A DNA stretch of 64,000 nucleotides from Nannocystis bainbridge (GTDB lineage Bacteria > Myxococcota_A > Polyangia > Nannocystales > Nannocystaceae), in assembly GCF_028368995.1 (NCBI RefSeq), contig NZ_JAQNDL010000003.1, positions 2,176,001 through 2,240,000 on the forward strand, in the 5' to 3' direction. Position 1 is the stretch's first letter; each line of letters starts with the position of its first letter. A model generated the notes under the pieces. It was not told the origin of the DNA, made no database searches, and saw nothing but the letters and a program-made list of their open reading frames with translations. Of the stretch, positions 1,329 to 62,985 are shown piece after piece. A program made the translations under genes and the position numbers.

Positions 1329-1398
1329 TGGCCTTCAGGGCATGTCCACCAGGGCATGTCCGAAGGCACCGGTCCTTCAGGACATGCCCCGAATTTCT
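1329..1398. repeat. Tandem array of 5 degenerate TGTCC-N4-GGACA units, 14-bp period
   Basis: Units start at 1329, 1343, 1357, 1371 and 1385, filling the gap between convergent genes. Confidence 0.8.
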
Positions 1399-1769
1399 CA
1401 GTGACGCTCGGGCTTGGCCAGGCCGATGAAGCCGGCGACCAGCACCAGGACCGCGGCCGCGAACGCCATGTACCCGCCGACCTCGAGCTGGATGCCGACC
1501 GGACGGCTGGTGGCGAAGACGCACAGGGCGACGCCGATCAGCCCGAACAGCAGGTGGAGCACGCCGAGGCCGCGCGCGAAGCCCCTGCGGCCGACCAGCA
1601 CGCCGAACAGCGACGGCAGGATCGACGGCACGGTGAGCATCAGGCCGAGCGCGACGTTGCGGATGACGCCGGCGAAGGCGCCCTCGGTGATGGTCATGAG
1701 CGACCGCAGCGGCAGAAACAGCGCGGCGATGCTGAGGAGGAGCGCGACGAGGGCGAGTTTCTTGGCCAT
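1398..1769 (-). CDS. Small integral membrane protein (about 4 TM)
   Basis: MAKKLALVALLL..., four hydrophobic segments, GC-rich third positions. Confidence 0.7.
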   Translation of the reverse strand: MAKKLALVALLLSIAALFLPLRSLMTITEGAFAGVIRNVALGLMLTVPSILPSLFGVLVGRRGFARGLGVLHLLFGLIGVALCVFATSRPVGIQLEVGGYMAFAAAVLVLVAGFIGLAKPERH

Positions 1770-1848
1770 GCACGGCCCTGATACCACAGGGCCGCACGGC
1801 ACCGATAGTGACATCGGATCGAACAGCGAATGAACGCCGTTCTCCCGC

Positions 1849-2508
1849 TCAACCAGCCTTGAACTTGAGGTCGAGCTTCAGCAGGACCTCGTCCTTGATC
1901 AGGTCGTCCGGCTTGCCGGGGTACTCGATCTTGAAGTCCTTGCGGTTGATCGTGAACTCGGCCTGACCCTGCGCGCCGCTGGCGTCGACGGTGATCTTGG
2001 CCGGGAAGCGGATCGCCTTCTTCTCGCCGTGCAGCTCGAGCTCGCCGCCCAGCTCGTGGGTCGCCCCGTTGTCGCCGGGCTTGGCCACGAACTCGTTGGC
2101 CGAGAACACCGCGGTCGGGAACTTCTCGACGTCGAAGAAATCGGGGCTCTTGAGGTGACCCGTGAGGTCCGCCGCGTCCGACGTGACCGAGGGGGTCTGC
2201 ACCACCACGCGCAACGACTCGATCTTGTCGCCGACCACCTTGGCCTCGCCCTCGAACTCCTCGAAGCCGCCCTTGTGGTCGCCGGTCAGCTTGGCACCGA
2301 CGAACTGGACCGAGCTGCCGGTCTTGTCGAGCTTGAGCGTGCGCGCGGTCGCGGCCGGCGCGTCCGTCTTGGTCTCGGCCTTGGCCTCGGTCTTCTTGAC
2401 GTCCTCGACCTGCGCCTTGGGCTTGCCGTCGATCTCGGACGAGCAAGCGGCGCTCAGCGACGCCGCCAGCGTGAGCGACAGCAGCGAATAAAACGATGTG
2501 CGTGCCAT
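1849..2508 (-). CDS. YceI family lipoprotein (polyisoprenoid-binding)
   Basis: Lipobox SAAC; motifs SSVQFVG, HLKSPDFFDVEKFPTAVF, GELELHG, INRKDF. Confidence 0.92.
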   Translation of the reverse strand: MARTSFYSLLSLTLAASLSAACSSEIDGKPKAQVEDVKKTEAKAETKTDAPAATARTLKLDKTGSSVQFVGAKLTGDHKGGFEEFEGEAKVVGDKIESLRVVVQTPSVTSDAADLTGHLKSPDFFDVEKFPTAVFSANEFVAKPGDNGATHELGGELELHGEKKAIRFPAKITVDASGAQGQAEFTINRKDFKIEYPGKPDDLIKDEVLLKLDLKFKAG

Positions 2509-2624
2509 GGTGCCGCGGACCCTAACACGAGCCCGCCGCGCCCGGCAAACCGCGCGGCCGGGCCGCCCGCGACTGCGATGAATCGTCCGCCGATTGGCCC
2601 GCCGCGTGGGCCCTCACGTCGGAC

Positions 2625-3617
2625 TCAACGCCGCCCGGCCTGCAACACCAGCGGATGCCCCGACAGCTGATCGAGCTGCTCCACGACCTCGCTGTCCTCG
2701 CGGACATATGCGTCGAGGAACGTCGAGATCACCTCGACGAAGAAGTTCCGCAGCGCCTCGCCCGGCGCCGTCGCCCGGTGATCGAGGAACGACCGCCCGG
2801 TGGTCGGATCGTCGGGGTGGCAGAACGCGAAGTGATTGGCCCCCGCGAGCAGGAACATGTGGGCGTCCCCACGGCCGCCCGGCAGCGCCTCGTGGAAGGT
2901 GCGCCGGATCAACGCGAACGCATCCGCCGGCGATGACCCGTAGCGATGACTGCTGGCCGCGATCACCCCATCGCGCTCGCCGCCGAGGAGCAGCAGCGGC
3001 ACCTCGCCCGGCAGCGGCAGCAGCGAGTGCTCCGGCCAGCCGAGCGCCGTCAGGGCCCCCGCGTGACCCGCATACGCGAACGCGGCCGAGAGGTTGTTGA
3101 AGTAGCGCAGGGCCGCGTTCTGCAGCGCTGCGCAGCCGCCGGCGGAGTGGCCGCCGAGCACGACGTGCTCGAGATCGAGCAAGCCGGCGAGGATGCCCTC
3201 GCACTGCAACCTGGCCAGCTCCTCGAGCAGCGGCCCGATCGTGGTCGACGTCGGCGCGTGACCGAAGCCCTCCGGCCCGAGGCGCGAACCATCGAACCCG
3301 GGCGTGAGCCCGACCACTCCTGGCTCGCCGAGCCGCACCTCGCCGACCAGCGAGAACGTCACGAACACGTAACCGCGATCGGCCAGCGCCTGCGCCAGCC
3401 ACCGGTAGCTCTCCGGCCCGACGTTGACGCCCGGCAGGAAGATCACGACCGGAAACGGCCCCGCGTCGGCGTCCGCCTCGACCGCCCCGAGCTCGCGCTC
3501 GGCCATCCCGCCGGTCAACCGCCCCGGGTAGAACACCCGCGCGTGCAGCGTGTCGTGCGGCCCTCGCAGCCCCGGCAACCGCACCGCCCGATGGAGCGCG
3601 CGCACGATGCGAGTCAT
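2625..3617 (-). CDS. Alpha/beta hydrolase (chlorophyllase/dienelactone hydrolase-like)
   Basis: PFPVVIFLPG, nucleophile motif GHSAGG, GERDGVI, GANHFAF. Confidence 0.8.
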   Translation of the reverse strand: MTRIVRALHRAVRLPGLRGPHDTLHARVFYPGRLTGGMAERELGAVEADADAGPFPVVIFLPGVNVGPESYRWLAQALADRGYVFVTFSLVGEVRLGEPGVVGLTPGFDGSRLGPEGFGHAPTSTTIGPLLEELARLQCEGILAGLLDLEHVVLGGHSAGGCAALQNAALRYFNNLSAAFAYAGHAGALTALGWPEHSLLPLPGEVPLLLLGGERDGVIAASSHRYGSSPADAFALIRRTFHEALPGGRGDAHMFLLAGANHFAFCHPDDPTTGRSFLDHRATAPGEALRNFFVEVISTFLDAYVREDSEVVEQLDQLSGHPLVLQAGRR

Positions 3618-61699: not shown

Positions 61700-61786
61700 C
61701 GCCATCCTCCACCAGCGCCGGCACTCTACCACGGGCCCCGGAGCCGCGAGCGACGACGATGACGACCTGGCCCGATGTACAGGTGA

Positions 61787-61990
61787 CTACTGTAGGCGGA
61801 GCAGCTTCCAGTACGCCCCGCGCCCCGTCGAGCGGATCGGCGGGAACTCCTCCCCGGTCTCCAGCGAGATCTCTCGCTCCTCCTGCGTCGGCTGCTTCCC
61901 TGTCGGCCCGTCGGTGTAGCCGTCGAAGACGTACTCCCCACTCGCCTTGCACTTGTCACTCGTCTTGAATCGATCGCCCACGTTGGCCAT
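61787..61990 (-). CDS. YjzC family protein (67 aa)
   Basis: RFKTSDKCKASGEY...EREISLETGEEFPP...YWKL; RBS GAGGAG. Confidence 0.75.
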   Translation of the reverse strand: MANVGDRFKTSDKCKASGEYVFDGYTDGPTGKQPTQEEREISLETGEEFPPIRSTGRGAYWKLLRLQ

Positions 61991-62573
61991 TTCGTCTCTC
62001 CTCGCCTTTGTGGTTCTTGCGACCGCCGCCATCGATCACCCGCGTTCGACGCTGCCATGACCGATGTTCACTCACGCCATGCGCGTGACGGTTTCGTCCG
62101 CAGACGACACGCATTGCAGTTCGGCTCGCTGCCCCCGCGCCTTGACAGCCCAGCATGGTGCGAGTAATGTCGATACGGCCCCAGCGATGGGGTCAGCCAT
62201 GCGCTTCTGATCCACGAGTCTTCGAGCACACCGACGCGGCGCCCTCACCGGGCTCGCCAGCCGCGGTTTGTGTCGATTTCTCCCGCTTTGCGGCGCCATG
62301 CGCCGACGAGCGATATGCGTCGCGCATGCGACCATAGTTCGGCACACCGGGGCTCTCGGTACTCGGAGGGCGATACCTCGTCCGGCGCGAACGCGCCGCG
62401 GGGCTGCGGGTCTGCGGATTCACTCTCGGGTGATTCGCCAGGCCGCGGGTGATCGTCGTCCATCGCGCCCTTCGGGGGCGCGCGCCGGGCCGCGTCGTCC
62501 TTTCATCATTCCCGCACCGGCGCGCGGGTTCGTTTACGTCTGTCCTTTTGGACAGGCTCGTAGGATCGCGTCC

Positions 62574-62825
62574 ATGCCCAAAATCTCCTTCGCTCCCAAG
62601 ACCAACCCTGACATCACCACCCCCGAGCCGCACACCGACCCCGAGCCGCGACCCGGGCGCGAGCACACCGGCCCGCTCTCATGGGTCCTGGGTGGCGCCC
62701 CCACCGCGCGTCCGGCCCCCGCGCCCGGTCGCCAGGAGCCGCGGCGCGAGCCGGCGCACAATCGCCAGCCCGTGGGCGCCGACGTCCGCCGCCGGCGCAA
62801 CCCGTCGTCGCGCTTCCGCGGCTGA
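62574..62825 (+). CDS. Hypothetical small Pro/Arg-rich protein
   Basis: ATG with upstream AGGA; low complexity; flanked on both sides by perfect 14-bp palindromes. Confidence 0.35.
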   Translation: MPKISFAPKTNPDITTPEPHTDPEPRPGREHTGPLSWVLGGAPTARPAPAPGRQEPRREPAHNRQPVGADVRRRRNPSSRFRG

Positions 62826-62985
62826 ACCGCGCCACCCACCGGCGAGCTCGGCCGACGCAGCCGAGCTCGCCTGACGATCGCCTCACCGTCCGCGGCGAGG
62901 CGCCTTCATTGCACATGTCCTCGGGGACATCTCGCGCACCTTCTCGCCCAACCGCGAAATGATGCCACATGTCCCCGCGGACATC

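Follow-up and report, generated by a model that had tools for sequence, protein, structure and literature searches.

A 14-bp two-armed palindrome, TGTCC-N4-GGACA, with four free bases between its arms (the dyad), is repeated thousands of times in the genome of Nannocystis bainbridge and often stands in phased rows at gene ends. We hypothesize that it is the site of a clade-specific, dimeric DNA-binding protein that reads this sequence and tiles the rows, marking or closing the ends of genes, and judging from the sequence we give this reading a probability of about 0.42. Such a protein would read the dyad on double-stranded DNA, the bound arrays would be boundaries at gene ends, for instance roadblocks to read-through or supercoil barriers, and the isolated sites within genes would be weaker members retained by the same reader.

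Short signals distributed over whole genomes (Chi, KOPS, USS/DUS, REP and HIP1 are examples) have in each case revealed some aspect of how chromosomes work. The dyad is unusual in being strictly spaced, in being tiled at 14 bp at gene ends and in overriding a codon bias of 93% GC3 in conserved enzymes. If it is read by a protein, Nannocystis would be a convenient system in which to study a site-specific protein that has sites by the thousand, and would show how genes can be delimited in high-GC bacteria without U-tract terminators. The motif also helps to separate long-resident from acquired DNA in these natural-product-rich genomes, and to refine gene ends.

The window, which is the whole analysed stretch of 64,000 nucleotides, contains 11 perfect dyads where 0.06 are expected, and 25 dyads if one mismatch is allowed. 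Dinucleotide-preserving shuffles of the window (n=100) had a mean of 0.06 and a maximum of 1, and none attained 11. All 11 copies that had been listed by eye in an earlier, sequence-only reading were recovered by the search of the window, each perfect and at exactly its listed position, and the nine listed near-matches are genuine as well, eight with one arm mismatch and the one at 4855 with two. The 11.05-Mb genome has 1,987 perfect dyads against 12.8 expected from 5-mer frequencies (approximately 155-fold), and TGTCC-N4-GGACA ranks top when all gapped 5-mer pairs in the genome are enumerated. The count rises to 6,245 dyads when one mismatch is tolerated, compared to 164 for a reversed control. 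The genome-wide count against a Markov background that the sequence-only reading had proposed shows the excess to hold at orders 3, 5 and 7, where two whole-genome simulations each gave 8 and 3, 6 and 18, and 45 and 46 copies, respectively. In called genes, 820 perfect dyads remain as 5, 7 and 4 once the codons are shuffled within each gene. Since the Markov models give at most 46 copies and the codon shuffles 4-7, against 1,987 and 820 observed, the over-representation is not explained by a high-order Markov or codon model, an objection which that reading had itself raised. It had also not recognised the motif as described, and we likewise found no published description of TGTCC-N4-GGACA in full-text literature searches and one genome announcement.

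It is the dyad and not its half that forms the unit. The half-site alone is barely enriched, with 12,351 and 11,418 single half-sites against about 10,600 by hand arithmetic from base frequencies, and the excess consists of dyads; spacers of 0-3 and 5-14 bases have 0-19 copies each, against the 1,987 at spacer 4. The earlier description of conserved arms around a free spacer is right for the arms but not entirely for the spacer, which has a weak Y-Y-R-R preference. The consensus extends outward to ggACATGTCC-N4-GGACATGTcc, and in the genome-wide profile no conserved sequence is found beyond about 5 bases on either side of the dyad. Distances from one TGTCC to the next peak at 14 (682), 28 (315), 42 (299) and 56 bp (150). 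Dyads that are perfect or have a single mismatch show 485 spacings of 14 bp and 305 of 28 bp. Both these phased arrays and the outward extension had been overlooked in the sequence-only reading. A helical-phase preference for 42 bp was hinted at by the half-site distances, but is lost when dyads with at most one mismatch are counted (485, 305, 232 and 128 at the four successive distances). The two arms vary almost independently of each other. Double arm changes that are mirrored and complementary are 1.18 times as frequent as predicted, against 0.90 times for those that are mirrored but non-complementary and 0.89 times for non-mirrored ones, so that complementary doubles are slightly favoured (e.g. 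TGCCC..GGGCA, 146 against about 81 predicted). Since the ratios are near 1 in all classes, base pairing is not the main constraint, and the near-independence of the arms fits two half-sites that are read by a protein.

The dyads cluster, mostly just behind genes. With our crude gene calls (a GC3-based caller, 8,127 genes, about 85% coding), the density falls from 5.31 sites per kb in convergent gaps to 1.90 in tandem and 0.65 in divergent ones, and the proportion of gaps that hold a site is 53%, 24% and 16%, respectively. The sequence-only reading had placed the copies in genes, promoters and convergent gaps alike, which is wrong in degree given the 8-fold difference between convergent and divergent gaps. 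It was right that this is not an ordinary regulon operator, as the sites number in the thousands and are scarcest in the divergent gaps that bear promoters. In tandem gaps 453 of 609 sites are closer to the upstream stop codon and 2 are equidistant, and the distances from stop codon to site are spread across 0-300 nt with a median of 71. As only 53% of the convergent and 24% of the tandem gaps have a site, the dyad cannot be a general gene-end signal. A large part of the perfect copies, 820 of 1,987 (41%), lie wholly within called genes and are evenly distributed along the gene length.

On a larger scale, all five contigs have 151-225 copies per Mb, and each full 200-kb bin has 10-64 copies (two short bins at contig ends have 4 and 0). 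No ori/ter gradient was found along the GC skew in the 200-kb bins of the five contigs, and this, together with copy number and regional placement, sets the dyad apart from parS, NBS, SBS and matS, none of which it had been thought to match. A role in chromosome architecture, as the sequence-only reading had inferred, may be one possibility, beside RNA hairpins at gene ends or a drive of the motif. The density varies with GC content, with 22-34 copies per Mb below 68% GC against 233-316 above 72% GC. The earlier view that the copies are scattered through the host backbone is correct, and the lower-GC part of the window (16316-48845) has no dyad with at most one mismatch; nor has the Tc-toxin island any within it.

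The sites in the window illustrate these patterns. A six-unit array phased at 14 bp (48832..48915) fills the 100-bp convergent gap between the stop of a Usp-family gene at 48820 and that of an FAD monooxygenase gene at 48921. Its unit at 48846 is perfect, those at 48874, 48888 and 48902 have two mismatches, and the remaining two, at 48832 and 48860, were recognised by eye and are unscored. Another array, between two minus-strand genes, is headed by the perfect dyad 9138..9151; five relatives have variant units in 14-bp phase at the aligned position, which indicates that the array persists as its individual units are replaced. Past the stop of a plus-strand gene for an AraC-type regulator (15459-16250), at 14-65 bp, there are two perfect dyads with an interval of 38 bp (16264..16315), and four relatives have one-mismatch variants at the position of the second, 16302. 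Two more, which start at 62916 and 62970 (62916..62983), lie 3-70 bp past the stop (62986) of a minus-strand TPR-repeat gene, in a stretch alignable in one relative only, where there is a shifted copy. The perfect dyad 62541..62554 lies where no gene could be called with confidence, beside two plus-strand frames whose low-complexity products have no Pfam matches; its arms are perfect in 6/6 genomes, and the spacer changes and the right flank is conserved. Two perfect dyads 27 bp apart, which start at 56415 and 56442 (56415..56455), are within a called 584-aa ORF, past its caspase-like domain (residues 2-234), in a stretch that could be aligned in none of five relatives. Dyads with one mismatch are, apart from those at 13434 and 58281, the twelve within 1329..14035 that start at 1343, 1371, 3638, 4599, 5751, 7227, 7446, 9899, 11325, 12778, 13919 and 14022.

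Dyads in coding sequence are written in rare codons and persist from one species to another. The perfect dyad 2693..2706 lies in a called gene (2625-3617, minus strand) with weak alpha/beta-hydrolase Pfam matches, and is perfect in all six aligned Nannocystis genomes, with one spacer change. The gene for chorismate synthase (Pfam PF01264, E 2e-130) has two abutting units (13434..13461), of which that at 13434 has a single mismatch and that at 13448, within the Pfam-confirmed domain, is perfect. The codons TGT, GGA and CAT at this site have shares of 0.10, 0.03 and 0.11 in a genome with a GC3 of 0.934. The perfect dyad is present in four of the five other large-genome relatives (5/6 genomes including our own), and absent from three other genomes of the same genus and from g4 and g2, two of the genera that have the motif. 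Its origin lies in a single subclade, where many closely spaced changes produced it, some of them altering the amino acids from DPAA to EGHV. The protein has the same length as those of the outgroups, hence the dyad was made by substitution and not by insertion. At both 2693 and 13448 the arms are kept between species while spacers and flanks change.

The motif is restricted to three genera that form a single clade, with 333-2,090 copies per genome in g1, 87-169 in g2 and 67-696 in g4, compared to 0-20 in other genera. In a midpoint-rooted chorismate synthase tree, g1, g2 and g4 make up one side of a branch with a support of 100/96. When we compared the phyletic range of XRE-type proteins, for five of the 19 HTH_3 matches in the genome and thus within the HTH_3 family only, one pair alone shared the range of the motif: a 133-aa protein (contig C3, 1091654-1092055) and a 126-aa protein (contig C1, 4266693-4267073), which we regard as the putative reader of the dyad. 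The pair is found in 7/7 genomes of g1 (two copies each), 4/5 of g2, 5/7 of g4 and 0/41 genomes of 14 other genera; in a sixth genome of g4 the sole match is weak and leads to a different protein. Counted by motif content it is present in 17/20 motif-rich and 0/41 motif-poor genomes, and the three motif-rich genomes that lack it are assemblies of 60-67% completeness. The three genera being on one supported branch, the match between motif and pair amounts to a single origin and counts as a single event, and any clade-specific gene would match the range of the motif equally well. The other proteins were rejected as readers, those of 169 aa (C2, 2077508-2078017) and 127 aa (C1, 4374331-4374714) because their range is too wide (each in 58/61 genomes of the family) and that of 75 aa (C3, 591710-591937) because it occurs in only 4/10 relatives of the same genus. 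The candidate has an HTH_3 match with E 5.6e-13, and its predicted recognition helix, assigned from a structure model of moderate quality (pLDDT 77), is invariant across the three genera. Weak fold neighbours (best E 0.006) are SinR, ClgR, controller proteins of restriction-modification systems (C.AhdI) and the lambda and P22 repressors, which are dimeric operator binders. The operator of phage 434 is a 14-bp dyad, conserved at its outer bases and only loosely specified at its centre. It is conceivable, but in our opinion unlikely, that all this amounts to a protein-based system of gene boundaries, in which the dyad, as operator of this clade-specific XRE pair, would have been written about 6,000 times, stacked lattices of the protein would close transcription units, and the distribution would also mark resident DNA against acquired islands such as the Tc-toxin locus.

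Gene-end arrays could also be hairpins of RNA or DNA, i.e. REP- or TRIT-like bidirectional terminators or stabilisers of 3' ends, with the copies in genes as by-products. A palindrome would serve both transcripts, the sites lie past stop codons and, in tandem gaps, mostly nearer the upstream one, the convergent gaps are the densest, and the TRIT of Mycobacterium are a precedent (PMC3152330). As RNA, the stretch 48821-48920 folds at -40.7 kcal/mol and is very stable (z -6.25), and the excess structure over shuffles is -0.131 kcal/mol per nt in motif-bearing convergent gaps against -0.064 in motif-free ones. A single unit would however have a stem of merely 5-8 bp, and the arms do not behave as compensating pairs. 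The gene-oriented profile has no T-run and no downstream orientation signal, and we have rejected an intrinsic-terminator tail on that ground. The evenly spread copies in genes, kept at the cost of rare codons, are not explained by a terminator either, and we consider hairpins a somewhat unlikely explanation on the whole. A simple terminator scan of 44001-64000 gave 11 sites against 5.1 ± 2.6 in shuffles, and only one of the 11 is a motif copy.

Molecular drive without any function of the single site is another alternative. Biased uptake, biased repair or short-patch conversion, which have been proposed for USS/DUS or HIP1, would spread the dyad, and its density would then track tolerance to change. 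The order of densities, convergent over tandem over divergent over coding, is that of relaxed constraint, the copies are scarce in lower-GC and probably acquired DNA (none in the Tc-toxin island), intergenic units turn over between species, and the clustered changes in chorismate synthase are what a drive could leave behind. But in contrast to an uptake word the single half-site is not over-represented, the driver itself is hypothetical, and the conservation of coding sites suits selection equally well. A strict dyad in 14-bp register needs a dimeric reader regardless, and drive appears to us rather improbable. A mobile element of REP/MITE type, spread by a RAYT-like transposase, is very improbable and largely refuted here. 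It would explain why the copies are many, palindromic, clustered, placed at gene ends and limited to one clade, but the own genome (90.5% complete) has no match to PF01797 (Y1, IS200/IS605-type transposase), a family that was matched in 6/14 named genomes in a control search. Conservation moreover ends about 5 bases into the flanks, and the chorismate synthase copy came about by substitution with the protein length unchanged.

Several known systems come close to the dyad. REP/BIME of enterobacteria and pseudomonads are short, clustered, lineage-specific palindromes found in hundreds to thousands of copies behind genes and between convergent genes, and the dyad is likewise abundant, clustered, lineage-specific and found in these places. 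Its unit, however, measures 14-24 bp and repeats in strict 14-bp phase, the own genome yielded no RAYT gene, and where REP is extragenic, 41% of the perfect dyads are in called genes and made by substitution. The DUS of Neisseria, the USS of Pasteurellaceae and the cyanobacterial HIP1 are short clade-specific words that occur in excess in coding and non-coding sequence alike and are scarce in acquired DNA, all of which holds for the dyad, but it differs in its strong gene-end bias and 14-bp arrays. With DUS and USS a single non-palindromic word is enriched, whereas here it is a spaced dyad and not the single arm; HIP1, whose 8-bp palindrome is uninterrupted and linked to a cognate methyltransferase, differs in sequence and format. 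The sites parS, Noc NBS, SlmA SBS and MatP matS are palindromes of similar size (12-16 bp), read by dimers in a chromosomal role, but in tens of copies confined to a region, against 1,987 perfect dyads on all contigs with no gradient. Operators of XRE/Cro-C1 type, such as that of phage 434, have the same 14-bp two-fold symmetry and loose centre, and the candidate reader has the XRE fold, but repressors of this type bind a handful of sites, at promoters, and here there are about 6,000, with the fewest at promoters. The TRIT ("Tuberculosis Rho-independent terminator") of Mycobacterium is a genus-restricted, mostly bidirectional palindrome with conserved sequence at gene ends; its 147 copies are tightly positioned near -8 relative to the stop, and its authors suspect an additional sequence-reading factor (PMC3152330). 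The dyad resembles TRIT as a clade-restricted, conserved gene-end palindrome with hairpin potential, and differs in having thousands of copies, which lie 0-300 nt past stops (median 71) and also throughout genes.

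The 14-bp dyad TGTCC-N4-GGACA occurs eleven times in perfect form in the window, which covers positions 2176001-2240000 of contig C2 of the genome G000. Shuffles that preserve dinucleotides (n=100) gave a mean of 0.06 and a maximum of 1, and the eleven copies listed in the sequence-only reading were all recovered by pattern search, at exactly the same coordinates. The genome (11,048,555 bp in five contigs, 71-72% GC) holds 1,987 perfect dyads, with 151-225 per Mb on every contig, against 12.8 expected from its 5-mer frequencies, and other spacer lengths (0-3 and 5-14) yield only 0-19 copies. 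Whole genomes simulated with Markov models contained 8 and 3 dyads at order 3, 6 and 18 at order 5, and 45 and 46 at order 7, while codon shuffling within genes left 5, 7 and 4 dyads where 820 are observed in called genes. The frequency is thus not explained by composition, by a high-order Markov model or by codon usage, and the over-representation proposed from the window alone is borne out. Allowing up to one arm mismatch gives 6,245 dyads genome-wide, compared to 164 for a control motif that was reversed but not complemented; with exactly two mismatches the numbers are 7,530 and 3,152. The most frequent variants have the fifth or third arm base altered.

The consensus reaches outward to about ggACATGTCC-yyrr-GGACATGTcc, and the flank profile of the dyads revealed no conserved bases beyond this. 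A maximal-order Markov model ranks ACATGT first among over-represented hexamers, and the 10-bp palindrome formed at the junction of two abutting units is found 956 times in the genome. Units are stacked in register: distances from one TGTCC to the next peak at 14 (682), 28 (315), 42 (299), 56 (150), 70 (79) and 84 (71) nt. Abutting pairs number only 16 among perfect dyads and 485 when one mismatch is allowed, and the rows consist mostly of imperfect units. The clearest row in the window, at 48832-48915, has six units that fill a convergent gap of 100 bp, those at 48832 and 48860 having been identified by eye. On contig C3 there is also an array (552739-552948) in which a 13-bp unit with the left arm only is repeated in tandem about 15 times, which shows that slippage too multiplies parts of the motif.

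Genes were called with a crude GC3-based method (8,127 genes, about 85% coding), and this gene set places 1,149 perfect copies between genes, 820 inside them and 18 on edges. Convergent gaps hold 436 of the intergenic copies (38%, vs 15.6% of intergenic bases), tandem gaps 609 and divergent gaps 104 (9%, vs 29% of the bases). With up to one mismatch, a site is present in 695 of 1,312 convergent (53%), 929 of 3,869 tandem (24%) and 221 of 1,393 divergent gaps (16%), at densities of 5.31, 1.90 and 0.65 sites per kb. In tandem gaps 453 copies are closer to the upstream stop and 154 to the downstream start; the median distance is 71 nt to the stop and 205 nt to the start. A gene-oriented profile displayed neither a T-run downstream of the sites nor an orientation bias in the spacer. 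Dyad density has no ori/ter gradient along the contigs; it climbs with local GC: regions under 68% GC have 22-34 copies per Mb, and those over 72% have 233-316. The stretch 16316-48845 of the window, at 63-68% GC, has no dyad with up to one mismatch. It holds a Tc (ABC) toxin-complex locus of two giant plus-strand ORFs (19573-36304), the first encoding a TcA-like protein of 3,065 aa (TcA_TcB_BD, ABC_toxin_N and neuraminidase-like domains) and the second a TcB/TcC-like protein of 2,498 aa (SpvB, TcdB middle regions, RHS repeats), as well as a DDE transposase gene (41100-42482; DUF772 and DDE_Tnp_1). The low GC and the missing motif suggest that the Tc locus is acquired DNA.

The 820 coding copies are evenly distributed along gene length and are divided by reading frame into 467, 284 and 69, the two frames compatible with codon usage being preferred. 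Within a Pfam-confirmed chorismate synthase domain, the dyad at 13448, which abuts a one-mismatch unit at 13434, encodes Cys-Pro-Glu-Gly-His-Val with TGT, GGA and CAT. These codons have synonymous shares of 0.10, 0.03 and 0.11, and the genome's GC3 is 0.934. The protein has equal length at this site in other genera, and the site therefore arose by substitution, not by insertion. It is perfect in G000 and in four of five other large-genome relatives, and absent from three other genomes of the genus and from the genera g4 and g2, which retain Cys-Pro-Asp-Pro/Glu-Ala-Ala in common codons. This pattern dates the gain to one subclade, with amino-acid changes. When positions 1-17000 were aligned with five genomes of the genus, site 2693 was perfect in six of six and 13448 in five of six genomes, with varying spacers and flanks, while intergenic rows kept their position and had individual units replaced. 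Site 62541 is also perfect in all six aligned genomes, which keep its right flank as well (62541-62590). No convincing ORF adjoins it on the plus strand; it could be a genuine operator, or belong to a small RNA or a leader. Site 48846 has a one-mismatch counterpart in one relative, 62970 aligns in a single relative as a shifted copy, and 56415, 56442 and 62916 align in none. The perfect dyads at 56415 and 56442 lie in the C-terminal part of a called 584-aa ORF (55490-57244) with an N-terminal caspase-like (Peptidase_C14) domain; that part does not align with the relatives and may be over-called.

Across 61 genomes of the family, those of genus g1 have 333-2,090 perfect dyads, those of g2 87-169, those of g4 67-696 and those of the 14 other genera 0-20; the reversed control gives 0-10. 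In a midpoint-rooted chorismate synthase tree of 42 rows, three outgroup rows being left out, a branch supported at 100/96 separates g1, g2 and g4 from the rest, and the motif thus has one origin.

Variation in one arm is nearly independent of that in the other: double changes that are mirrored and complementary occur at 1.18 times the predicted number and the other classes at 0.90 and 0.89, and a single arm is barely enriched by itself. Together with the restriction to one spacer length and the conservation of coding copies, this points to a dimeric, sequence-specific reader, not to pairing alone or to a single uptake-type word. We tentatively read the dyad as a DNA site bound by a protein, at a probability of roughly 0.4. 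The copies at gene ends could instead be a hairpin element with a REP- or TRIT-like role, which we consider unlikely though worth weighing, since as RNA the rows also form strong hairpins (-40.7 kcal/mol and z -6.25 for 48821-48920) and convergent gaps of 40-250 bp fold more stably than their shuffles, by 0.131 kcal/mol per nt in the 534 gaps with the motif and by 0.064 in the 393 without. TRIT is the closest published precedent, with 147 copies in a narrow position near the stop, in Mycobacterium only (PMC3152330).

Drive without any function at the single site would produce the same order of densities and would equally leave acquired DNA without copies; we regard it as still less probable than a hairpin role. 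A mobile REP element is very improbable, and no RAYT gene was found in G000. We found no published description of the dyad in full-text searches on Nannocystis and myxobacteria, and the consulted part of the N. exedens genome announcement only mentions large repetitive regions (PMC5658511). New here are the half-site independence test, the single origin of the motif clade, the dating of one coding site and the exclusion of three XRE candidates.

If a protein reads the dyad, a pair of XRE-type proteins on C3 (1091654-1092055, 133 aa) and C1 (4266693-4267073, 126 aa) is a candidate by its sequence and distribution, nothing more. G000 has 19 HTH_3 matches, and five proteins were checked for phyletic range; two were rejected for occurring throughout the family (58 of 61 genomes in each case) and one as patchy within the genus (four of ten relatives). 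The pair is found in seven of seven g1 genomes (two copies each), four of five g2 and five of seven g4; in the other 14 genera, with 41 genomes, it was not found. Completeness is 60-67% in the three motif-rich genomes that lack it. As the clade has one origin, this match is a single event and the phyletic argument is weakened. The family is narrow (a set of 5.8 billion proteins yields 35 clusters, each with at least 56% identity), with an HTH_3 domain, a basic insert between helices 1 and 2, and a recognition helix, predicted from a structure model of moderate quality (pLDDT 77), that is invariant across the three genera. The PDB contains no sequence relative, and weak fold neighbours of the model are SinR, ClgR, R-M controller proteins and the lambda and P22 repressors. 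Upstream of the C3 copy, at 129 nt, there is a dyad with one mismatch, and three of the four large-genome relatives examined have one about 94-101 nt before the gene; this may be chance at such site density. One of the two rejected proteins that occur throughout the family, of 169 aa (C2, 2077508-2078017) and present in 58 of 61 genomes, has a C-terminal XRE helix-turn-helix and a disordered, acidic, Pro/Thr-rich N-terminus, and is a conserved putative DNA-binding protein.
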